This document shows positions 1 to 16,242 of a stretch of DNA of 64,000 nucleotides, in pieces. The first letter of the stretch is position 1; every line of letters starts with the position of its first letter. The stretch lies in the NCBI GenBank assembly GCA_964438425.1, contig CAYTKM010000002.1, forward strand, positions 92,495-156,494. Reading direction: 5' to 3'. The notes below the pieces were generated by a model, which ran no database searches, had not been told where the DNA came from, and worked only from the letters and a program-made list of their open reading frames with translations. The translations under genes and the position numbers were made by a program. The stretch comes from an uncultured Gammaproteobacteria bacterium. GTDB lineage: Bacteria > Cyanobacteriota > Vampirovibrionia > LMEP-6097.

Positions 1-1533
1 GCAACAGATGAGGCTAGCGGTATAAGTTCAAGCGAGCTAGGTAATATAAATGATAGACCTGCTGAAATTCATCACCTGTCTCAACCTCCTCAAGAGCCAG
101 AGCATAGACCAGAAAGGTCAGCAGAGCAACTTGAAGCTGAAATGACAGAACTCATTACTAGTGGTCGACTCGAAAGTGCTGCTATAGAAGCTTTCTATGA
201 TGGTTTAAGTGCAAGTGAAGCTGACACCTTTACTCAAATAGCTGCTGAAACCCTGACGAGAATAAGTAATAATTGGCGTTCAAGAGCTTTAAGCGAAGGT
301 AATTTAAGCACTTTTAATGATGCTTATCATAGTACTCGCGCGCAAAGATTGCTGGAAGCTAGAATGAGAGATAATTCAAGCTCAGTTAATGATAATCTTT
401 TAACTTCTAGAGTCCCTCCAGTAAGTAATTTTAGTGTACCAACTTTCATAGGTGGTGATCGAATTCTCTCACCAGCTAGATTTAATAGAATCATTACTAC
501 AGCAGGCGAACTATTTCGAGCGGATACTAATGAAGTTAAGGCTTACACCGAAAAGTCAGTGACCTTAGATGCAAGTGGTCTAGCTAAGGCTGCCAAGCAA
601 ACTTTAGCAGAGTTCAATGATAAGCAACTTAGTATAAATCTAAAAGTTTCAAACGCAGAGAGTATGCATCATCGTACAAATAATAACAGTATGCAGCCTG
701 CACCAGAAGCTGTGCTAACTGAATTTATTAAAGATCATGAGCTGGATATGAATGCTGCTAGCTCTGAGCTTTTTGTGATAGATGACCAGCAATTGAAAAA
801 CTTACTGACTAAGACAAATACCTCTGAAAAGAAAGTACAAAACTTATTGAAAGTTAATTACCTGATGAATCAAGCTGAAGCTAATTTGGGTCAAAACAGT
901 GGCTACAGAAGAAGTTTAATACGTGCAGAAAGATTTGATAAAGAAGTAATGAACTTTACTTTTGGAGAAAAAATTCAAAATCTAAAATCTGATCTTATAA
1001 CTAAAATTAGAGATCTTGAAGATAAGGGAATAAATATTATTCACGCTTCAAAGGCTAGGTTTAAGGTCTCACTAAAACATAAGCCTGAAAGCCAATTTTT
1101 AAATTCAAATAGACTGAAAGTTTTAAATGAAGCCGAAGAATTATTTGATAGTAGAGAAGAGCTGAAGAGACTTAAAAAAATTACTGGGATTATTAAAAAT
1201 ATAGATTACGATCAGACTGGGAGTATCACTGAGAAAAGTCGAAAACATATAGAAAAGACTTTAGGTTTTGATGAGCTCATTAATATTGAAAATATGGTGA
1301 AAGAAAACGTTGCCCAAGGGCATGTACGAACTATCAGAGAAGCGTCTGCTAATTACGCAAAAAAAGTCGGCTCAGATGTTACTAAAGCACCCAAATACTG
1401 GCTATTAAAAGGTGTTTCAAATAAAAGAGATGATCAGGCGTCTGCTGCTGAAAAAGAAGCTCAGATTATAGCTTTAGTGCCATTCTATAAAGGTGTGCAG
1501 CCTAGTTTGACTAAACTTTCCGAAATAAGCTAA
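1..1533 (+). CDS. hypothetical protein, 5'-truncated by window edge; paralog of downstream ORF
   Basis: Frame is open from base 1 (gca aca gat gag...) into the listed ATG at 142. Shares K[YF]WLL...AL[VI]PFYKG C-terminal motif with 1633..2463. Confidence 0.75.
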   Translation, partial: ATDEASGISSSELGNINDRPAEIHHLSQPPQEPEHRPERSAEQLEAEMTELITSGRLESAAIEAFYDGLSASEADTFTQIAAETLTRISNNWRSRALSEGNLSTFNDAYHSTRAQRLLEARMRDNSSSVNDNLLTSRVPPVSNFSVPTFIGGDRILSPARFNRIITTAGELFRADTNEVKAYTEKSVTLDASGLAKAAKQTLAEFNDKQLSINLKVSNAESMHHRTNNNSMQPAPEAVLTEFIKDHELDMNAASSELFVIDDQQLKNLLTKTNTSEKKVQNLLKVNYLMNQAEANLGQNSGYRRSLIRAERFDKEVMNFTFGEKIQNLKSDLITKIRDLEDKGINIIHASKARFKVSLKHKPESQFLNSNRLKVLNEAEELFDSREELKRLKKITGIIKNIDYDQTGSITEKSRKHIEKTLGFDELINIENMVKENVAQGHVRTIREASANYAKKVGSDVTKAPKYWLLKGVSNKRDDQASAAEKEAQIIALVPFYKGVQPSLTKLSEIS

Positions 1534-1632
1534 TTAGATTGTCGCGCTAAAATTCGAGTGCTAAGTTGAAGAGATTATTATATTTCATTAAAATACTAAG
1601 TTTATTATCTTGAAAATGTTATCGTTTGTTAT

Positions 1633-2463
1633 GTGAATAATGGGTTTTCAAATTTACGCATAGCATTTAATCGTTTATTTAATGGTATTACACCGAGAAG
1701 AGCTGCAGGCACTAATGCTAACTTAGAGGCTAGTGAAGTAGAACCTAATAGTACAGCCGATTACGAGCAGGGAAATCGCGAGCGACCTGATGGCACTATT
1801 GAGATATCTTCGGCACCTGTAGAAAACTATGACTTATTAGTTCATGGCTTATTAACTGGTGGTAGCACATATCCAACAACATTTTCACCTGCGTATAATA
1901 GAGTTGCTAATGATTATGGAGTAGACTTTCATAGCCAAGATTTAAATATTAAAGCTAGTGATATTAAAACGGCTTTTAAAAACACATTTGATTATCTAAA
2001 AGACTCTAACCAATTGCAATCTGCTGAAAATATTAATTTCAGTTTAAGACCGAAACCAGCTCATGTAGTAGCAAGCTTCATTCATCAGCAAAGCGTACCA
2101 CCTAAAGTCTATATAATTAATGAGGAGCAAGCGCAAGGTCTTGTAAATCAATTATCTAAAACAGGTAACACCGAGGCTTCAGCTGAAAATATTAATTTTA
2201 ACGCTGTAAAAGTCACTTTGTCTCAACCTGATGATAAAGATAAATTAGCTAAAAAGCTTGAACAGGTTGAAATTGCCTATAATCAAGATACTAGTAATAA
2301 TAAGCTAGATAACCAGCCCGCTAAATTTTGGTTGCTATTAAATGATCCTGATTATTTAGGTAAGTCTAGGCAGATTGAAAACGGTGGCTCATTAGATCAA
2401 GCTGAATTAACTAAAACCCTTGCTTTAATACCATTTTATAAGGGTGGTTGGACGGAGCTGTAA
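1633..2463 (+). CDS. hypothetical protein, paralog of upstream ORF
   Basis: 276-aa ORF with GTG start. C-terminus KFWLL...ALIPFYKG matches upstream KYWLL...ALVPFYKG. Confidence 0.75.
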   Translation: MNNGFSNLRIAFNRLFNGITPRRAAGTNANLEASEVEPNSTADYEQGNRERPDGTIEISSAPVENYDLLVHGLLTGGSTYPTTFSPAYNRVANDYGVDFHSQDLNIKASDIKTAFKNTFDYLKDSNQLQSAENINFSLRPKPAHVVASFIHQQSVPPKVYIINEEQAQGLVNQLSKTGNTEASAENINFNAVKVTLSQPDDKDKLAKKLEQVEIAYNQDTSNNKLDNQPAKFWLLLNDPDYLGKSRQIENGGSLDQAELTKTLALIPFYKGGWTEL

Positions 2464-7475: not shown

Positions 7476-10400
7476 TTATGAGTAACGAGTTTCATCATTT
7501 AACCATTGGTTAAATTCCCAAGTACTACGTTCAAACATTTCCATAATCATGGTCAGTATTAATAATTCCTGAACACTCTTATCCTCAACTCTAACTTTAT
7601 TTTTCTCAATAATAGAGGTTAAAGAAATGTTTTCGTCACCCTCTTCAAGAAAATCAGCATCCATAGTCTGGTTGACTTGAGTTAATTCTTTAGAAGCAGA
7701 CTTAATACCACCAGCAGCTGAATCGATATAATAGATTAAATCCTTAGTCAACTGTTCTTTTTTAACAGCATTATTTGAATTTCTAATAGTTTCGATTTGC
7801 TCTTCTAAACCTTCCTTAAAGTCTCCATACTTAGGATCCATATTATAGTTCAAGTTCTTACCTGTAAAAGCATCTTCAATAACACTAAAATCTATACCTT
7901 GGTCATTTTCAACTTCAGGATCACCATAAAGAATTTTCATGAATTCAGAATTCTCACCATCAACACCCTTGCGAGCTGCAAGTCTAAGTTTATGTAAGTC
8001 TGCTCTATAAGTACTTAAGCCTCTAGATAAACGGTTTTTATCTTTTTGAGTATCATGTAATTCTTTTAAGTAGTCATTGACAGCACCTTCAGAGTTGCCT
8101 GATACACGAGGATCTAATACGTGATCTATAATATCTATATCAGCTTTAATCGATGAAATTCCGCTCATACTACCGATAGTCTGTCTGGCGATCGACACGT
8201 CAGCTTTATCTTCAAGCCAAGCTTCGATAATAGCTTTATCGGCTAAAGAAGCATCGTCTTTATTTTCACTGATGTTTTCATGATAATCAATAACTTTTTG
8301 TAAATATTCTTTTACAGTTTTGATTTGATCAAGATTACCACCCGCTAATTTAGGTGACTCACCTACGATATCTATGATACTTTTAGATGCTTGGATATCA
8401 CGATTAGCATTTTTAAAACTTACATCATATACTTTATCGTTATCTAGCATGTAATCATCAACATAATCACGCAAACCATCAGCATAACCGCTAGCAGTGC
8501 CATCACGACCCTTAGATAGTTTATCTAACATACGTACATCATCCGATGAGGTAGTTTTAGCATCATTAATCGGTCTCATACTGACCTGACCTGACATTTT
8601 TTTATTCAAGTCGTTTAGAGTATCAGTAATATCTTTAATAACATTACCTACATCAATATTACCTATTTCAATTTTATCTAGCTGCTCAGCAATACGTTTT
8701 TGGTTAGGAATATTAGCGATATGCTCTGCTAAAGTACCAGTGAATCTTTCACCTTCACCAAACTTGTTGTTTTTAACTGTAACTTGAGAGTTACTAGCTT
8801 TAGTAAACATTTGATTCATGGTATACATCATCTGAACATAATTCTGTCTTCTTTCAGCATAATCATGTCTGTTCATGTATTTTCTTTCATGCTCTAAAGC
8901 TTTATAAAGATCAAGCATCTTGATGTTGCCACCACCTGAATACTTAATTGTATTACCGTCTTCATCTTGATAAACTTTCTCTTTAGTAGTTTCACCAGTT
9001 ACTGGATCTGTATAATCAGCAGTCCAGAATTTAGTTAACACTTTAGCGTTTTTACCCCAAGAAGTTTTAACATCACGGATAAACATACCATTGTTTACAT
9101 CTTCGTTAGTCCAACCATGCTCATCTTGACTTAAAGTCTTAGGTACACCATTTTGACCTATTTTAAATTCAGTTGTAAAATTACCTAAAATATCATCGAT
9201 AACCTCACTAGCCGCTTCTTGCATCATGTCATTGGTTCTAGTTACTTCTTTAGAAAAGTCACTAATAGAAGGATTAATACGACGCAAATCGTTAAAACCA
9301 CTAATTAATTTATCAAAGATTTGGGTAGTTTCTTCATCATACTCACCATCAAGAACATAATTACCATTTGCATCAAGAGTAATCTGCGCGAATGGATTCT
9401 TTTCCTTACTTTGATTAACTTTATCAATCATAGTTTGACCGATTTTAGCTATAACTGATGAAGTTACAGTTTCAGTTAGCATTGGTGGTGGTAGGTTTCT
9501 ACTTGCAGTAACAGAACCATCTGACTTCGGTTTAGATCTTTCTTTAGTAAAGTATCTAGAGTTTTTGCTGCTTGCGGTCATCATTTGACCAGCCATAACA
9601 ACGTTATGTGGATTTGCCATACCAACTTCTAGCTCATCGTAACTATTAAGTAAGTAATCAATCTTGAATTCATCTTCTAAATCTCTAGTATTTTGATGAT
9701 TATTGATAAAGTCTTCTACTAAACTAGCATCACCTTTACGCTCTCTAAAAGCAGTTACTTGCTCTTCAGTCATGGTATTGGTATCGTTATTTGCTGGTTT
9801 ACGATAAGATTCGAAACTCTTGCCACGTCTTTCCATATCATCAACAAAAGTCATGGCTTTATTGTAGCGGTCGAAGCGCAGCCTATCTTGGTAAGTTGGC
9901 TCAATGCCAGCTTCTTTCATTAAAAACGGATTGATTTTAATGGCAACTTTATTCTCAGAAATGTATTTATCCATTTTCTTACTATCAGAAGTGATTTCTT
10001 CAAAAGTTGCGTCATCAATATCAACCACACCATCTAAAATATCTTTAAAGATGACTTTTTTCATATAAGCACTTACATCGCGGGCATCAATAACCTGACC
10101 TTCAGCTTTATTGAGGAAATCATCATCGTTTAATTGAAAATTATTTAGTAATAGTTTACCTCTTAAATCTTTAGTAAATAGATCAGTACTTATTTCATCA
10201 TAACCCTCACTGCCCATGACATCTAATACTTCGTCAGCTAACTGATGGTTAGACTGTCTTAAACTACCAAATAATAGATTATTAATGTTTTCATTATCAG
10301 TCGCGCCGCCGCCAGTACCAAGGTCACCTGAAAGTAAATCAAATAGTGTACGGTTGTCTTCAAAGTAACGTGAATTATTAATATCGAAATTCTCGATAAA

Positions 10401-11747
10401 GATATCAGAGAGTTTACCTAGTTCACTTTGACCGCGCGCATAAAGTGGTTGACCTTCAGTTTTATTAACATCTTCCATGAAACTATCAAAGTTAAAAGTT
10501 TTAGTTTCCCTAAAACTACCTTGCACAGTTGGATCATAAGTTTTTTCTACTTCAAAAAATTCATCATAGGCAATTTTTTGATTTAATTCAATACTTTTAG
10601 TAGCTAAATCTTTTTTTTCAACTTTCTTAACTACAAAGTTAAACATATAGTTCTGCAAATAAGTTTTTAGCATGGCATCTGGGCTATCACCATTTGCTTT
10701 CAAGCGGGCAGCTAGCTCACCTGGAGCGAGTCCATTATCACCGATAGATTCTGTATCTATATTGCCACCTTCCATTTCTAGAATTTGAAATTTAGGTACT
10801 TTAGCTCTGATTTCTGGATCACTTGAATTGCGCATTGCTTTTCTAGCATCAGCATCAGCAGTATAAAAATCTTCATGTTTTTGAATATATTCATCAAAGA
10901 ACTTTTGAATTTCAGTAGGACTGTTATCAATAACATTACCGTAGTCATCTTCTCGAGCAAAACCAGTAATTAATTTAACTTTTTGGAATAATTCGTCATC
11001 TGCTGCTGCACTTTGCTCTTCACTATTGAGTTTTACACGTCCAGCTTCATCAGTTTCAAAAACTCTAATATTAGAGTCACCTAACTGATAGTATTCCTGA
11101 ATTTTAGCTTCGCCAGCGCTTCTATTAAATAGTGAATCACCATCATGAATAAGCTTTGCCATGTCACGAGCGCTATTTAAGTTTTTAGGTGGCGTATACT
11201 TTACGTTTAAGTCATCAACACCGTCTTTAGCATATGTAAAAGTATTAGTATTAACCTGGTTAAAGAAGTCACCTAGCTTAGTTTCACCACGATTAAAGAA
11301 GTCATCATCTTTCTTAGCATCGTAAGTGTAGTGGTGCAAGTTCCACTTACCATTGTCGGCCATTTTATTATAGTCATCAGCGATTTTTTTGTTAAATAAA
11401 CCTACAAAATCACCTCTAAGGTCACCACCAGCATCAACGGCTAAGTTAGAAACCTCTTGGAACTGAGATAAAATATAGTTCATTCTATTACTAGAAGATT
11501 GAAAACGATAGTTACGAGCATTCTCACCAGGTTGATGATTTTCACCAGAACTGATTGAAATATTAGATAAAAGCTCTACACTGCCATTCTCTGCCTGAAA
11601 ACTGTTGGATTTGAAATCGTTATCAATTGAGAAAAAACCATCAAAATAACCAGATAGTTTCTCTGATTTTGAACTTAATGCTTCTAATGAATTGGTGGCT
11701 AAATCTCTATTTTGCCCGAATTGTGGATCTAAATTACTACTGCTCAT
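7476..11747 (-). CDS. large acidic Asp/Asn-rich, Cys-free hypothetical protein
   Basis: 1423-aa ORF with GAGGT RBS-like element upstream. No signal peptide or known domain recognised. Confidence 0.8.
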   Translation of the reverse strand: MSSSNLDPQFGQNRDLATNSLEALSSKSEKLSGYFDGFFSIDNDFKSNSFQAENGSVELLSNISISSGENHQPGENARNYRFQSSSNRMNYILSQFQEVSNLAVDAGGDLRGDFVGLFNKKIADDYNKMADNGKWNLHHYTYDAKKDDDFFNRGETKLGDFFNQVNTNTFTYAKDGVDDLNVKYTPPKNLNSARDMAKLIHDGDSLFNRSAGEAKIQEYYQLGDSNIRVFETDEAGRVKLNSEEQSAAADDELFQKVKLITGFAREDDYGNVIDNSPTEIQKFFDEYIQKHEDFYTADADARKAMRNSSDPEIRAKVPKFQILEMEGGNIDTESIGDNGLAPGELAARLKANGDSPDAMLKTYLQNYMFNFVVKKVEKKDLATKSIELNQKIAYDEFFEVEKTYDPTVQGSFRETKTFNFDSFMEDVNKTEGQPLYARGQSELGKLSDIFIENFDINNSRYFEDNRTLFDLLSGDLGTGGGATDNENINNLLFGSLRQSNHQLADEVLDVMGSEGYDEISTDLFTKDLRGKLLLNNFQLNDDDFLNKAEGQVIDARDVSAYMKKVIFKDILDGVVDIDDATFEEITSDSKKMDKYISENKVAIKINPFLMKEAGIEPTYQDRLRFDRYNKAMTFVDDMERRGKSFESYRKPANNDTNTMTEEQVTAFRERKGDASLVEDFINNHQNTRDLEDEFKIDYLLNSYDELEVGMANPHNVVMAGQMMTASSKNSRYFTKERSKPKSDGSVTASRNLPPPMLTETVTSSVIAKIGQTMIDKVNQSKEKNPFAQITLDANGNYVLDGEYDEETTQIFDKLISGFNDLRRINPSISDFSKEVTRTNDMMQEAASEVIDDILGNFTTEFKIGQNGVPKTLSQDEHGWTNEDVNNGMFIRDVKTSWGKNAKVLTKFWTADYTDPVTGETTKEKVYQDEDGNTIKYSGGGNIKMLDLYKALEHERKYMNRHDYAERRQNYVQMMYTMNQMFTKASNSQVTVKNNKFGEGERFTGTLAEHIANIPNQKRIAEQLDKIEIGNIDVGNVIKDITDTLNDLNKKMSGQVSMRPINDAKTTSSDDVRMLDKLSKGRDGTASGYADGLRDYVDDYMLDNDKVYDVSFKNANRDIQASKSIIDIVGESPKLAGGNLDQIKTVKEYLQKVIDYHENISENKDDASLADKAIIEAWLEDKADVSIARQTIGSMSGISSIKADIDIIDHVLDPRVSGNSEGAVNDYLKELHDTQKDKNRLSRGLSTYRADLHKLRLAARKGVDGENSEFMKILYGDPEVENDQGIDFSVIEDAFTGKNLNYNMDPKYGDFKEGLEEQIETIRNSNNAVKKEQLTKDLIYYIDSAAGGIKSASKELTQVNQTMDADFLEEGDENISLTSIIEKNKVRVEDKSVQELLILTMIMEMFERSTWEFNQWLNDETRYS

Positions 11748-11798: not shown

Positions 11799-12539
11799 TT
11801 AAATTACGATACCAATCTTTCTTAGGTTATCAAGTAATTCTCTTAACTTACTACCTGTATTATTTAAATCCTGTATTTTAAAACGCTTATGAAAATTTTT
11901 TAATAGTGCAGCTTCAGTAGTACCATTGCGGATTTGATTAATAATAAAATAAGTACCATCTGAAAGTTCAAAATATCTTATTTTGTTTTGTAAGCTTCTA
12001 AAAACAAACATCATTTCTTTTTCAGGTTTAAATTCTGGTACATCATTAATAGCTGAATTTAGCTGCAAGAAGTTAATAATTTTGCTGATCGGGTATTTAA
12101 AACGATAAATTTTGCTTGCTGGGTTAATTTTAAGATTACTACTGTTACTTGGAGCTTGAACCACTAGTGGCTGATTATACAGTGTAAGCTCCGCCCATTC
12201 ATATTCAGCTAGCTCACTTAACCAGCGTGGATAATGTTTATACTTTAATCTAAATCTAAAACTAGCTAAGAACTTTGAAAAATTTAAAGCAGCAGCTCTA
12301 TAGATGGCTGAATCAGCTGGGTAACGGTGGTAATACTCTAGTATGTTTTGCTCCCAGGTACTTTGCATTATTTTATAGCACTGCGGGTAAGCCTTTTTTA
12401 AAAAAGACTCTAGATTAGTTACAGCTAGGCTTTTATAAATACTTAAGCCAGCTAGTACTTTATCATCTAAGCTCACTTTTCTACCACGCAGGTAAGCTGA
12501 GATCTTTTGTTGGTCTTTATATAGTTTATTTGCGAGCAT
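11799..12539 (-). CDS. DUF2063 family MNIO partner protein (HvfC/BufC-like)
   Basis: GLSIYKSL..NLESFLKKAYP, F.KFL, PRWLSELAEYEWAEL, F.YPISKI; adjacent to DUF692. Confidence 0.85.
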   Translation of the reverse strand: MLANKLYKDQQKISAYLRGRKVSLDDKVLAGLSIYKSLAVTNLESFLKKAYPQCYKIMQSTWEQNILEYYHRYPADSAIYRAAALNFSKFLASFRFRLKYKHYPRWLSELAEYEWAELTLYNQPLVVQAPSNSSNLKINPASKIYRFKYPISKIINFLQLNSAINDVPEFKPEKEMMFVFRSLQNKIRYFELSDGTYFIINQIRNGTTEAALLKNFHKRFKIQDLNNTGSKLRELLDNLRKIGIVI

Positions 12540-12568
12540 AGATAGAAGGTAATAGAAATAGATTTATT

Positions 12569-13564
12569 TTATCGAAGATGATCAGCTGAGCTATTTTCTA
12601 TGATCTCGATTCGAGCTATCTGATCAAGCAAAATACAAAATTCATTAATCTGTTGATTTTCGTTTTGTTTAGCGTCATACTTATCATCCATGATTTTACG
12701 GATCTGTTTTAATTCTTCCACAATTTCAGTAAAATTAAAATTACCATCACGTTCAAGTGAAACAGCTTTAATACGTGTTTTATTAAAAACTGTTTTAAAA
12801 AGTTCCATAACTGTAGGGTGCACGTTATTTGCCCGGGTATCAAGTAACTTGATCTCGGTATCTGTGTACCTTGATTTATACTTTTTTTTATGACCCGCTA
12901 AATGAACTTGAACTACTTTATCTAAGTTTATTTCTGAGATAAAGTCTTTAGCTCGGTAACGATGATTAACAGAATTTACATAAACATTATTTAGATCTAG
13001 TAATAAACCACAATCCGCCAGCTCGCATAGTTCATTTAAATACTGATACTCGCGCATTTCGTTTTCGGGGTAATATAAGTAGTAACTAGGATTTTCTACT
13101 AAAAAGGGAATCTGAAACTGATCTTGATAAAATTTAATATTGTCAGCTACTATCTTCATTGATAGCTTAGTTAGTGGTACTGGTAAGAGCTCTTGAAAAT
13201 ATTTACCACGAATACGGGTAACTGATAAATGATCTGAAAACCAGGGTGCTTTAATTTCCTGGTTTAGCTTTTTAAGCTGATTTAATAAAAACATGTCAAA
13301 CTCGATCTCACCGAGTTTGCGTGGCGCGCTACCTATACTTAGGTTTGCACTGTGCGGTATTAAGGGGATTTCTCTATTAACAGCTTCTTTAAAATGTTTA
13401 GCTGGCAAACCACCGCGATAAATATGATTTTCTGGTACTATTTCTAGCCATTCGATTAGAGTTTGTCTAGCATTTTCATCCAGATAATCGAAAGTGGATC
13501 TCCGCAGCTCGCTGCGAAGACCCAATCCCAAACCAAAATACTTTAGTTTACTTTTGTCAAACAA
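12569..13564 (-). CDS. DUF692 multinuclear non-heme iron-dependent oxidase (MNIO, HvfB/BufB-like)
   Basis: GLGLR, WLEIVPEN, H..NLSIG, WFSDHLS, LLPVP, VENPSYY, GLLLDLNNVYVNSVNH, VHLAGH, LERD. Confidence 0.93.
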   Translation of the reverse strand: MFDKSKLKYFGLGLGLRSELRRSTFDYLDENARQTLIEWLEIVPENHIYRGGLPAKHFKEAVNREIPLIPHSANLSIGSAPRKLGEIEFDMFLLNQLKKLNQEIKAPWFSDHLSVTRIRGKYFQELLPVPLTKLSMKIVADNIKFYQDQFQIPFLVENPSYYLYYPENEMREYQYLNELCELADCGLLLDLNNVYVNSVNHRYRAKDFISEINLDKVVQVHLAGHKKKYKSRYTDTEIKLLDTRANNVHPTVMELFKTVFNKTRIKAVSLERDGNFNFTEIVEELKQIRKIMDDKYDAKQNENQQINEFCILLDQIARIEIIENSSADHLR

Positions 13565-13567
13565 AGA

Positions 13568-13774
13568 TTAGTGGTGGTCGTGATGTTCTTCAACTTCATG
13601 TTCGATATTGTCACCCATTTCATCCATGCCGTCTTCCATATCGTTACCTAGCTCTTCCATTTCTTCGCCAACAGTAGGTTCTTTTTCAACAGTTTCTACG
13701 TTACACGCGTTTAACATAGCAGTGAAGCTTAAAGCCACGATTGCAGTTGAAAAGATTTTTAGTAATTTACTCAT
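13568..13774 (-). CDS. small predicted lipoprotein; candidate MNIO precursor or metal-binding peptide
   Basis: AGGAG RBS, signal peptide ending LNA-C, acidic Met-rich 11-mers and EHHDHH tail. Stop lies 3 bp before the MNIO start. Confidence 0.75.
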   Translation of the reverse strand: MSKLLKIFSTAIVALSFTAMLNACNVETVEKEPTVGEEMEELGNDMEDGMDEMGDNIEHEVEEHHDHH

Positions 13775-13788
13775 TTGATTAATTCTCC

Positions 13789-14226
13789 TTATTTTTCCTG
13801 TCTAATTAGATAGTCTAAACTATATTTGCCGGCGCCGTGTGAAAGTAAAACAAAAAGCATTATTAAATAATACAGAGGAATTTCAAAGCCGTTTTCTTGA
13901 TGAGAGAAATGTGTTAAGCCATGAACGAAAGCTATGGCTGAGCACATTACTACCATCAAAGGTAGGGAGACCAGTCTGGTTAAAAAACCAAACGCTAAGA
14001 AAATTACTCCTGCTATTTCTGCTGCGGTAGCTAGAGTTAAGCTTAGTTCAGGCATCGGAATGCCAAGCTCTTTAAACCAGCTAATAGTATCAGCAAAATT
14101 GCTCAATTTTCTCACTGCTGGACCATAAAGGCCGTAAGCAAGTAATAGTCTAAGAAATAACAGTGCCAAATCTTTAAATGGTTTAAAAATTTTTAGTGTT
14201 ATACTAATTAGACCCGAAATCATCAT
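13789..14226 (-). CDS. DoxX family membrane protein (HvfX-like)
   Basis: LLFLRLLLAYG...KL, WF..LGIP.P, E..G..LA.G..TR, NGFEIPLYY, GAGKYSLD. Confidence 0.92.
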   Translation of the reverse strand: MMISGLISITLKIFKPFKDLALLFLRLLLAYGLYGPAVRKLSNFADTISWFKELGIPMPELSLTLATAAEIAGVIFLAFGFLTRLVSLPLMVVMCSAIAFVHGLTHFSHQENGFEIPLYYLIMLFVLLSHGAGKYSLDYLIRQEK

Positions 14227-14327
14227 ACACTATAATATCAATAAATTTCAATAAATTTATGCTTATGATATATTAAAGGTAAAAGTTGACTTAAAACTTG
14301 TTAGTATTTAAAGTCTCTTATTTATAA

Positions 14328-14648
14328 ATGAATAGTTTAAGAAACTCAACTGAAAACTTTGTACTTGCTTGCGCTAAAGATGATAGTACAGTAGCTGTTT
14401 TATGTCGCACTGAGGGCTATAACTTAGGTCCAGCTGTTTGCTCATCAAAAAAAGACGCTGTGAAGCTTAAAACGAAGCTGGCTAATGATGAGCGTGCCAT
14501 GATTAATTCTTGTGCGCTAGCAATTATTAAGACTTTACTCGTGTACAAGGTTACTAAAAACCATGTACCAGTCTGGGACGGTGAGTCTCTTTGGGCTTAC
14601 CTGCCAGATGATTCAGTTAAATGCGTTGAATCGCAGCAACTATGGTAA
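14328..14648 (+). CDS. hypothetical protein (5 Cys), divergent from the MNIO operon
   Basis: 106-aa ORF filling the gap between doxX and radA. Confidence 0.65.
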   Translation: MNSLRNSTENFVLACAKDDSTVAVLCRTEGYNLGPAVCSSKKDAVKLKTKLANDERAMINSCALAIIKTLLVYKVTKNHVPVWDGESLWAYLPDDSVKCVESQQLW

Positions 14649-14832
14649 TCTGTGTAAGTTAAATATTTAGGCAGTGGCGGTCTTAAAATACTTTAACCTA
14701 GATAGTCACCTAGATAAATTCAAAATCATAGTTATGATAATTCTAATCCTGCTAAATAAGCGGATTTAAACATAAATCGCAGGGGTTTAAATCTAAACCG
14801 TTGATTAGAGTCAGCTCGAAATGCTGGATCTG

Positions 14833-16242
14833 CTAAGCGCTAGCACCAACTTTAGGCTTTTTTACTAAAGTGTTTTGAAGCAGGTAAGCAGCTTGCTTAA
14901 TACTACTTACTGGAATTAAAGTAGCATCAAATTTATCACAATCAAGCTTAGTAAAGTTTTGTTGTGGTAGCATAATATGCTTGAAACCGAGTTTGATCCC
15001 TTCTTTTATTCTGATTTCTAGCTGGTTTGCGTAGCGCACTTCACCATTTAAACCCAGCTCACCGATGACTAATAGATCCTCGCAGATATTTTCAAGTTCT
15101 AAGGCATTTACAAAGATACTTAAAGCGATACCTAAATCTACTGCAGGCTCTTTAATAGTTAAACCACCTACTACATTTAAATAAATATCTGATTTATATA
15201 AAGTTAGCTTTAGGTGTTTTTGTAAGATCGCAATAATTTGGTGCAAGCGGTTTAAATCTATGCCATTTGCCAGTCTACGTGGATTGTTATATTCAGTTTT
15301 AATCGCAAGTGACTGAATCTCAACTAATAGTGAGCGTCTGCCCTCACGCGTCGCCACCACTATGCCACCTGATCTTTGGTCTAAAAAGATCTCTGAAGGA
15401 TCCTTAACATCTTCCAGACCTGTTTCAACCATGTTAAAGACTCCAAGCTCGTCAGTATTACCGAAACGATTTTTGATGGCTCTTAAAATACGTATATTTT
15501 GGTCTTTAACGCTCTCAAACTGCAAAACAGCATCTACCATATGCTCTAAGATCTTAGGTCCAGCTATATCGCCATCTTTATTTATGTGTCCCACAATTAA
15601 AATAGGGACGCCTGAACTTTTAGCTAGTCTCATTAAGCTAGAGCAGCACTCACGCACCTGACTAACCGTGCCAGGAATAGAGTCCAAATGAGGATTATAG
15701 ATAGCTTGAATACTATCAATGATAATTAATTCTAGCTTCAGACTATGTACTTGATTAATAATTTTTTCTAGATTATTTTCAGTGTAAACGTAGATATTAT
15801 CGAGCTTTTCGGTATCTACTTTTAGACGCTTAGCGCGCATTTTAAGCTGCGAAGAAGATTCCTCCGCGCTCACATAGAGCACACCAGCAGATTTCTGGTT
15901 AAAGTGATTCGCTACTTGCAAAAGTAAAGTGGATTTACCGATACCTGGGTGCCCGCCAACTAACACTAAACTGGCTGGCACAATGCCACCACCTAAAACT
16001 CGATCAAATTCTAAAGAACCTGAATCTGTACGTTTAATTTCATTAATATTTATTTGATTCAAAGTCTGGACTTTATCTTCAGCTTCAACAAAAAGTTTAT
16101 GTTTGTTTTTTTTAGCACTTTTAGAAGCTTTTTCAAGTTTTTGCTCTTCAAAAGTACCCCAGCTTTTACAATAAGTGCATTGTCCAAGGTACCCAGCACT
16201 TTCATAACCACATTCATTGCATACCCAGACTGATTTACCCAT
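14833..16242 (-). CDS. radA: DNA repair protein RadA/Sms
   Basis: N-terminal C4 zinc finger, GHPGIGKSTLLLQ, IDSIQ, KNRFG, Lon-like C-terminus GELGLNGEVR. Confidence 0.96.
   Translation of the reverse strand: MGKSVWVCNECGYESAGYLGQCTYCKSWGTFEEQKLEKASKSAKKNKHKLFVEAEDKVQTLNQININEIKRTDSGSLEFDRVLGGGIVPASLVLVGGHPGIGKSTLLLQVANHFNQKSAGVLYVSAEESSSQLKMRAKRLKVDTEKLDNIYVYTENNLEKIINQVHSLKLELIIIDSIQAIYNPHLDSIPGTVSQVRECCSSLMRLAKSSGVPILIVGHINKDGDIAGPKILEHMVDAVLQFESVKDQNIRILRAIKNRFGNTDELGVFNMVETGLEDVKDPSEIFLDQRSGGIVVATREGRRSLLVEIQSLAIKTEYNNPRRLANGIDLNRLHQIIAILQKHLKLTLYKSDIYLNVVGGLTIKEPAVDLGIALSIFVNALELENICEDLLVIGELGLNGEVRYANQLEIRIKEGIKLGFKHIMLPQQNFTKLDCDKFDATLIPVSSIKQAAYLLQNTLVKKPKVGASA

Follow-up and report, generated by a model that had tools for sequence, protein, structure and literature searches.

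Organization of the locus

The operon described here lies in a window of 64,000 nucleotides, the whole stretch of DNA that was analysed (positions 92,495 to 156,494 of contig CAYTKM010000002.1, assembly GCA_964438425.1), which comes from an uncultured environmental Caenarcaniphilales-like bacterium, a non-photosynthetic relative of the cyanobacteria. On the minus strand, a doxX gene, a gene for a 68-aa peptide, a gene for an MNIO (DUF692) enzyme and a gene for a DUF2063 protein follow one another with intergenic gaps of 14, 3 and 29 bp; the coordinates of the open reading frames (ORFs) and the family calls agree with the tight operon proposed in a preliminary description of this DNA. The peptide in the precursor position appears to descend from the cysteine-repeat precursors of the oxazolin system without having kept any cysteine that such a system could modify, and the accompanying enzyme has an arginine in place of a histidine that is essential in its characterised relative HvfB.

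The family assignments are clear for three of the four products. The DoxX protein matches PF07681 (E 3.4e-18) and, with 116.8 bits, passes the NCBIfam HvfX cut-off of 80. The MNIO matches PF05114 (E 4.6e-71; 239.6 bits, cut-off 25) and the sequence of PDB entry 3BWW (E 1.1e-39); of the NCBIfam models, BufB scores highest for it, with 213.5 bits against a cut-off of 310, followed by HvfB with 200.9 bits against 360, so that neither cut-off is reached. The DUF2063 protein exceeds the PF09836 cut-off of 27.2 with 36.2 bits and falls below that of NCBIfam HvfC (98 bits, cut-off 142). Nothing among the PDB sequences matches it, and 14 alignment columns are invariant in the 19 HvfC proteins of the host's family, this one included. 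These Pfam and NCBIfam matches for DoxX, MNIO and DUF2063 bear out the earlier assignment of the operon to an hvf/oxazolin-type (bufferin-like) gene set. The peptide itself has no match in Pfam or NCBIfam, nor does it match NF050137 or NF050188 at E values up to 10. The coordinates of all features are collected in Table 1.

Table 1. Features of the operon, with positions in the window
Feature	Position	Strand	Basis
doxX / hvfX-type membrane protein, 145 aa	13789..14226	minus	PF07681 + NCBIfam HvfX
Cysteine-less HvfA-type lipopeptide (putative) in precursor position, 68 aa	13568..13774	minus	ORF + homology to relatives' precursors
Signal peptide with lipobox-like L-N-A-C, residues 1-24	13703..13774	minus	LNAC-NV invariant, 7/7 peptides
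Met-lined amphipathic acidic segment, residues 35-61	13592..13672	minus	hydrophobic moment
His-rich C-terminus EHEVEEHHDHH, residues 58-68	13571..13603	minus	sequence
MNIO (DUF692) enzyme, HvfB/BufB-like, 331 aa, TTG start	12569..13564	minus	PF05114
CGG codon, Arg244 in D-T-R motif (D-T-H in relatives)	12833..12835	minus	MNIO alignment
13-bp hairpin within first 70 nt of MNIO ORF	13495..13524	minus	fold
DUF2063 / HvfC-type partner, 246 aa	11799..12539	minus	PF09836
Stretch covered by one contig from each of two RNA libraries, linking doxX and peptide gene	13550..14211	.	0 differences

A precursor that has lost its cysteines

By inspection, the peptide begins with two lysines and a hydrophobic stretch of 15 residues, followed by L-N-A-C. 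As had been noted previously, its only cysteine, C24 in the ORF translation, occupies this lipobox-like position; there are no KCG-like motifs, and neither of the other two frames of the same strand holds a cysteine-rich or cysteine-repeat frame over the gene. The mature part comprises 44 residues, among them 13 Glu, 5 Asp, 5 His and 4 Met.

Used as query in a word-based search (lengths 37-119), the peptide retrieved only itself, and in the ESM Atlas it reached small "lipoprotein" and "YtxH" clusters at 0.87, under the 0.9 bar. Scans for similar loci with the MNIO protein as query gave nothing, and alignment-based scans recovered one metagenome contig of a sister genus and nine genome loci from two sister genera, only. 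The three genomes of the nearest genus combine the shared signal peptide and LNAC-NV with an acidic linker, after which come three HKCG/GKCG repeats; a second genus (six genomes and the metagenome contig) also has this leader, and its tail is cysteine-free and rich in Ala, Thr, Pro and Glu. Seven aligned peptides from the three genera have in common M1, K3, L4, K6, I7, F8, F17, L21, N22, A23, C24, N25, V26, E30, E40 and E41, LNAC-NV being invariant in all seven. Since the leader, LNAC-NV and these conserved residues are shared with relatives at the corresponding locus beside radA, the 68-aa peptide is evidently a genuine descendant of a lipobox-type oxazolin precursor and not an unrelated small ORF.

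The check for homologous peptides beside MNIO homologues, which had been called for at the outset, therefore found syntenic precursors in the same position: the six relatives' peptides share the signal peptide, the lipobox, N25, V26, E30, E40 and E41 with the one described here, and the claim that the latter sits in the precursor position was correct. The further suggestion that it founds a new precursor class survives in part. The peptide does have no modifiable core cysteine, but it is a cysteine-less derivative of a lipobox-type HvfA precursor rather than a member of an unrelated class, and it is without all of the (E/D)(G/H)KCG repeats that its closest relatives retain. The two cysteine-less peptide types both end in His and, beyond the leader part, have no core motif in common. 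The Met/His tail, like the Arg244 described below, was seen in one genome of its genus, for which no closer relative was found.

One further precursor of the family, at 1155-1421 (+) of locus L014 in genome G002, has only two cysteines (HECG and SQCG); the tail behind them is acidic, rich in Gly and contains His and Met. This precursor may be an intermediate between cysteine repeats and an acidic tail.

An altered residue in the predicted third metal site of the enzyme

In an alignment of 26 MNIOs from the host's family, the enzyme departs at six sites from a residue common to all 25 others: F101N, E134L, L146Y, F175Y, H244R and L269S. Such a number is not unusual for a lone lineage, another of which has seven. 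Position 244 is His in all 25 of the other family members; of the best 120 homologues from the protein collection, 116 have His there and three have Pro, and only the present enzyme has Arg. The MNIO has kept H71, H112, E157, D190, N193, H221, D242 and E271, which, N193 and D242 apart, are presumably the ligands of iron sites 1 and 2, an assignment taken in part from the MbnB structures. With Arg at the equivalent of H244, the full iron-site residue set of the HvfB type is incomplete. The contigs of two DNA runs show 0 differences at the Arg244 codon, a confirmation that is not independent because both runs come from one sample, which is possibly the source of the assembly.

The Arg244 position aligns with the His of the D-T-H motif in 3BWW, a structure 72% identical to Haemophilus influenzae HvfB according to the available text of a recent preprint (bioRxiv 10.64898/2026.07.17.739211). 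The same text gives N175, D242 and H244 of HvfB as the predicted ligands of a third metal site and reports that Ala and Ser variants of each of the three are catalytically inactive; it adds that this site need not hold iron and is not iron-occupied in the active state (bioRxiv 10.64898/2026.07.17.739211). Because the Arg sits at the very His that is essential in HvfB, we infer that the MNIO-HvfC pair no longer performs the canonical reaction.

There is no frameshift or stop in the MNIO or HvfC ORF, the protein collection contains no nearer MNIO than one of 58% identity, and the MNIOs of the nearest genus (three genomes) are 55-59% identical to the one described here. Identity to the nearest genus is 57.7% for MNIO, 58.3-58.7% for RadA and 41.5% for HvfC, so that MNIO is preserved to the degree of a housekeeping gene.

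In two genera of the host's family MNIO and HvfC form a natural fusion of some 490-570 aa (PF05114 + PF09836), as at 703-2373 (-) of L020 and in L021, L011, L018, P0040, P0043, P0053, P0068 and others. The artificial HvfBC fusion of the 2026 preprint has the same arrangement (bioRxiv 10.64898/2026.07.17.739211).

Evolutionary history of the locus in the family

An MNIO is present in 27 of 30 genomes of the host's family (29 of 41 in a first, wider sample), and an HvfB-like MNIO in 158 of the 301 genomes sampled from the class. Within the class sample, 91 of 96 genomes of one large-genome family carry an MNIO, and none of the 99 of a small-genome family.

The gene order peptide, MNIO, HvfC and large protein is kept in the relatives' loci, which are of two types: beside hisB in most genera and beside radA in three, including the present one. 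The hisB-linked precursors have an ordinary signal peptide and 2 to 9 (E/D)(G/H)KCG repeats; with 29.3 and 29.5 bits, two of them exceed the cut-off of 19.5 set for the NCBIfam HvfA model KCGExKCG. At locus L011 the true precursor is a 119-aa KCG-repeat ORF. The MNIOs of the radA-linked loci form a clade (support 99/94), and in the tree the MNIO described here groups with those of KCG-repeat operons. Synteny and tree together indicate that the present cluster is descended from an hvf/oxazolin (Buf_EGKCG) cluster.

Within the radA-linked clade this genome branches first, and the cysteine-bearing genus and the second cysteine-less genus are sisters (99/95). Forcing the cysteine-less rows into one clade costs 9.13 log-likelihood units (approximately unbiased test, p 0.026), a value to be read with the facts that the constrained group was chosen after the tree had been seen and that this genome stands on a long branch of 0.6. 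Two separate losses of the cysteines are accordingly favoured by the tree but not proven.

In the second cysteine-less genus, too, the MNIOs depart from an otherwise invariant family consensus (A223G, H225L/F and T243S). Three full-length 382-aa MNIOs that are 84% identical to the type of this sister genus (P0027, P0028 and P0030) carry D190N, D242N and H244P together, and look like metal-site-less pseudoenzymes. Active-site motif changes of the kind seen in the cysteine-less lineages occur in none of the 19 MNIOs beside cysteine-coding precursors, a contrast behind which stand only two independent lineages.

Pairwise dN/dS among six species of the sister cysteine-less genus, where defined, is 0.05-0.32 for the peptide, 0.08-0.21 for MNIO, 0.04-0.11 for HvfC and 0.06-0.23 for radA. 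The appearance of real decay can be seen elsewhere in the family, at locus L026 of genome G019, whose precursor is frameshifted between the signal peptide and the HECG/HHCG repeats and whose HvfC is broken up into two frames; no MNIO match came from the second genome of the genus. Given the RadA-like conservation of the MNIO described here, the low dN/dS of the sister genus and the different look of decay elsewhere, the MNIO-HvfC pair has been retained by selection in the cysteine-less systems.

Two further observations concern the sister genus. Its peptide gene (L005-L007, L023-L025) has a dS of 0.02-0.27, as against 0.17-2.3 for MNIO, which suggests either recent exchange or an additional constraint on the nucleotide sequence. 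It also possesses another hvf locus, of the conventional kind, whose precursor has KCG repeats (L030-L032; G013 contig C49), at which the HvfC ORF is short (179 aa) and where one genome has doxX in two pieces and a stop in MNIO.

The search for another substrate

The preliminary description had left room for a true substrate encoded elsewhere. The assembly, of 2.78 Mb and 92.65% complete, lends this no support. It contains one MNIO; DUF2282 (PF10048) is absent at E values up to 1; and none of 60100 stop-to-stop six-frame stretches of 20 aa or more has two or more [KH]CG motifs. Most relatives have their hvf genes next to hisB; in this genome hisB is followed by unrelated genes and has no hvf gene beside it. 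As far as an incomplete assembly allows, these searches leave the 68-aa peptide as the MNIO's only candidate partner.

Predicted export and anchoring

A crude scan of the genome found 43 candidate lipoprotein signals, three of which have LNAC, including that of a 352-aa lipoprotein-like ORF. The lipoprotein pathway is represented by LspA (119.4 bits) and Lgt (213 bits). Since membrane-anchored oxazolins and bufferins of the signal peptidase II type have already been described or predicted, as far as the available texts go (PMC13056109; PMC12452194), an anchor alone would not be new.

The mature peptide

In the stretch from residue 35 to residue 61 of the peptide (VGEEMEELGNDMEDGMDEMGDNIEHEV), the residues V, M, L, M, M, M, I and V lie together inside a 100-degree arc of the helical wheel. 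The hydrophobic moment of this segment is 0.46 at 100 degrees, a value reached by none of 5000 shuffles; its best 18-residue window is equalled by 1 of 1000 shuffles, those of the six relatives' peptides by 174-673 of 1000. The Met-lined amphipathic segment is unique to this peptide in comparison with the six relatives.

The mature part had been described as ending in three 11-mers. At the protein level 11 is indeed the best of the periods 3-16, a score equalled by 0.6% of 5000 shuffles (without correction for the 14 periods), but no tandem repeat underlies it in the DNA (0 rows), and the periodicity is better described as an amphipathic-helix pattern, the period-11 signal arising because hydrophobic residues line one face of it. 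MAFFT sets the His-rich end, EHEVEEHHDHH, opposite EHKCGADHKCG of the nearest genus; the alignment is short and of low complexity, and the correspondence of the His end with the KCG repeats is suggestive.

Expression and neighbouring genes

In each of two RNA libraries, one contig links doxX with the peptide gene at 0 differences (X3 record 14, 13550-14211; X4 record 15, 13577-14204). The four runs that contain the stretch belong to one sample and study, possibly the source of the DNA, and their contigs show neither transcript ends nor levels. No RNA-library contig lies on MNIO, on HvfC or on 14268-15200, and such contig gaps are not evidence of silence.

The region 13470-13580, around the hairpin at the start of the MNIO ORF, has a fold z of -3.28, matched by 1 of 200 shuffles, and comparable structures lie 3' of the precursor gene in two of three relatives tested (L003 and L009). 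At the conventional locus L009 (about 2370-2480, -), the spacer between precursor and MNIO contains a strong hairpin followed by a U-run (z -3.81), which resembles a terminator or attenuator placed behind the precursor gene. As a lead only, the hairpin fits the layout common among peptides that are made on the ribosome and modified after translation (RiPPs), in which precursor message outnumbers enzyme message. In the promoter and terminator scan, site counts were at chance (12 versus 12.9 and 2 versus 1.6).

The doxX homologues of the nearest genus and of one conventional genus (49-58% identical) are on other contigs, unlinked to the hvf genes, one of them beside a ferrochelatase-like gene. 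In bufferins, the available text reports, neither modification nor the copper phenotype requires DoxX (PMC11626156), and the role of HvfX is given as unknown (PMC11252979).

The neighbours that were scanned are a RadA-like protein, an aminotransferase, an HDOD protein and a 1423-aa protein without a family; as had been stated before, no sigma factor of the extracytoplasmic function type is adjacent with its anti-sigma factor. The 1423-aa protein (7476-11747, -) begins 51 bp past HvfC, has zero cysteines and, by eye, no signal peptide, and gives only sub-threshold noise in NCBIfam. A large protein follows HvfC in every locus seen of the host's family, and the 1423-aa gene may form one unit with the operon. 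Between radA and the operon, and divergently transcribed, lies a 106-aa ORF with four cysteines (14328-14648, +). It has a counterpart of 108 aa in the same place in the sister genus (L033 1767-2093, -); Pfam and the ESM Atlas give it no family, and NCBIfam only sub-threshold noise.

Discussion

By descent and gene content, the locus is best regarded as a derived member of the oxazolin system (HvfA/HvfB/HvfC/HvfX, Buf_EGKCG), in the subtype with a lipoprotein signal, in which two defining features, the cysteine-repeat core and the complete set of iron-site residues, are lacking. With the oxazolin system of H. influenzae it shares the four gene types, with doxX before the precursor, and its MNIO is closest to the HvfB and BufB models and to 3BWW. 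It differs in that the precursor has neither KCG repeat nor core cysteine and has a lipobox-type signal, in the Arg that replaces H244 of HvfB, and in that MNIO and HvfC score below the NCBIfam equivalog cut-offs. The host differs as well: the oxazolin family has been reported mostly from the Pseudomonadota (PMC12452194, available text), and not from a Caenarcaniphilales-like bacterium.

The bufferins of Caulobacter vibrioides (BufA1/BufA2, BufB, BufC and BufD) resemble the present system in having an MNIO, a DUF2063 partner and DoxX. A Sec-exported precursor and a role in copper buffering may be further points in common, export and role being predictions in the present case. In contrast to the bufferins, there is no DUF2282 or 6-Cys domain, no cysteine available for a thiooxazole and no SigF/NrsF pair nearby. 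The DAG-RiPPs, RiPPs of the lipoprotein pathway whose synthesis involves MNIOs (DybA, and predicted lipidated oxazolins such as NedA), also have a lipobox-like cysteine directly after the signal peptide and an adjoining MNIO, but those described, as far as the available text goes, keep cysteine core motifs (CPxCGxG, EGKCG or CxxxxC), of which this peptide has none (PMC13056109).

Met/His/Asp-rich repeats bind copper in periplasmic proteins of the CopA/CopB/PcoA/CueO type. The repeats of CopA, CopB and PcoA, the Met-rich helix of CueO, and CusF resemble the mature peptide in their clustered Met with Asp, Glu, Gly and His, in a His-rich end and, presumably, in facing the periplasm. No sequence homology is known between them and the peptide, which is a putative 44-residue lipopeptide and not a domain of a larger protein.

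We tentatively favour, at somewhat less than even confidence, the view that the peptide is probably a lipid-anchored, directly metal-binding derivative of the lipidated oxazolins that dispenses with thiooxazole chemistry. The peptide would be exported by Sec and probably anchored through a diacylglyceryl group on Cys24 by Lgt and LspA; it would then act in the periplasm or on the inner membrane's outer face, where it would bind or buffer a metal, most likely copper, its ligands being the Met, His and carboxylate groups that the gene itself encodes instead of thiooxazoles made by an enzyme. The canonical conversion of cysteine to thiooxazole cannot take place on this peptide. An HvfA without repeats is reportedly not modified by HvfBC (PMC11252979, available text), the peptide has no repeats, and the enzyme is without a His on which HvfB depends; for these reasons direct metal binding is the most economical reading. 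What is left for the MNIO-HvfC pair to do may be either to bind or escort the precursor or to carry out a different oxidation.

Several observations weigh against this view. First, the retention of an MNIO and an HvfC that are both intact and conserved is the part that it leaves unexplained. The MNIO is as conserved between genera as RadA, which would be unexpected were it without a job, and in the sister cysteine-less genus peptide, MNIO and HvfC are all under purifying selection. Because its site-1 and site-2 ligands, N193 and D242 are kept, the enzyme may have remained active and able to bind iron. That the peptide binds metal is suggested by composition only, and none of the scanned neighbours of the operon is a metal-related gene. 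AlphaFold2, run on the seven-row alignment, gives a helix only at residues 3-24, in the signal peptide, and leaves the mature part at a predicted local distance difference test (pLDDT) score below 50; any helix would therefore form on binding a partner, a metal or the membrane. Finally, the Asn at position -2 of the lipobox is outside the classical residue sets, and cleavage after LNA by signal peptidase I is possible. Since the pair is selectively retained, a new reaction on residues other than cysteine and a slow loss both stay alive as explanations.

According to the first of these, which we consider possible without thinking it likely, the MNIO has been re-tooled and together with HvfC oxidises some other residue (His, Met, Asp or the C-terminal residue), so that the peptide would belong to a new RiPP class within the bufferin/oxazolin clade. 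The intact MNIO and HvfC ORFs, their RadA-like conservation, the purifying selection on the whole cysteine-less system of the sister genus, the presence of all site-1 and site-2 ligands and the terminal His of both cysteine-less peptide types are all in keeping with such a change. To our knowledge, the characterised members of the large bufferin/oxazolin MNIO cluster all act on cysteines. Reactions of MNIOs on Asp, Asn and Phe are known, but the characterised enzymes that perform them fall, by the available text of the MNIO survey, in sequence clusters apart from the bufferin/oxazolin enzymes (PMC12452194). The third site, too, can be argued both ways: as it is iron-free in active HvfB, an Arg might be tolerated there or might stand in for a cation, but the variants H244A and H244S abolish HvfB activity (bioRxiv 10.64898/2026.07.17.739211, available text). 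The MNIOs with D190N, D242N and H244P look like instances of metal-site loss and not of re-tooling, and the two cysteine-less peptide types offer no shared core motif beyond the leader on which a common reaction could act. Given Arg244 and the loss of two Asp ligands in MNIOs of the sister type, the modification on His, Asp, Asn or Met envisaged in the preliminary description seems less likely.

Alternatively, MNIO and HvfC could be in the course of being lost, having become dispensable once the precursor had lost its cysteines, while the peptide, with DoxX, works alone; this we regard as unlikely. It would account for the changes, in both cysteine-less lineages, at otherwise invariant MNIO motif positions (H244R in one; A223G, H225L/F and T243S in the other, with D190N, D242N and H244P in some), for the absence of such changes from all 19 MNIOs beside cysteine-coding precursors, and for RNA-library contigs that bridge the peptide to DoxX and not to the enzyme genes. 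It is difficult to reconcile with uninterrupted MNIO and HvfC frames, with an MNIO conservation equal to that of RadA and with an omega of 0.04-0.21 for MNIO and HvfC in the sister lineage; and where decay is real, in genome G019 (L026), it takes the different form of a frameshifted precursor and HvfC.

The two remaining explanations are both very improbable. In one, signal peptidase I cuts after L-N-A and Cys24, instead of being lipidated, becomes an N-terminal cysteine that either is the only residue on which the MNIO acts or binds a metal: L-x-A agrees with the -3/-1 rule, Asn at -2 is unusual for a lipobox, and C24, N25 and V26 are invariant in all seven peptides, but LNAC recurs in 3 of the 43 candidate lipoprotein signals of the genome, the NACNV context is unlike the KCG context of modified cysteines, R244 argues against canonical chemistry, and oxazolins processed by signal peptidase II have been described (PMC13056109, available text). 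In the other, the real MNIO substrate is encoded in the roughly 7% of the genome that is unseen and the peptide is an unrelated small lipoprotein, which is hard to maintain for a peptide homologous to bona fide precursors in the same position, in a genome with one MNIO, no DUF2282, no KCG-repeat frame and no hisB-linked locus.

As regards novelty, the unassigned precursor candidates of the MNIO survey carry 1 to 18 cysteines; neither the available text of that survey (PMC12452194) nor a literature phrase search, which was weak and is not proof that such peptides are unpublished, gave a description of cysteine-less precursors. The locus extends the oxazolin system to the non-photosynthetic relatives of the cyanobacteria. 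A bolder generalization, to which we attach a modest probability, is that in the Caenarcaniphilales a branch of the oxazolin/bufferin MNIO clade has shifted, probably twice, to precursors without modifiable cysteine while enzyme and HvfC stayed under selection, the Arg244 enzyme being a natural two-iron variant that either performs a hitherto undescribed non-cysteine oxidation on a lipid-anchored Met/His peptide or has turned into a non-catalytic, peptide-handling pseudoenzyme. Were this true, either outcome would represent a new kind of MNIO system.

Whichever of these readings is preferred, the host's family offers a natural series, from a lipidated precursor with three cysteine repeats, through two lineages with none, to one genus in which the system is decaying. 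Because the matching changes fall at enzyme residues that mutagenesis has found essential, this series gives a direct way to ask what MNIO-HvfC pairs are kept for once their substrate residues are gone, whether the residues of site 3 can be replaced in nature, and whether encoded Met and His ligands can substitute for thiooxazoles in the handling of copper.

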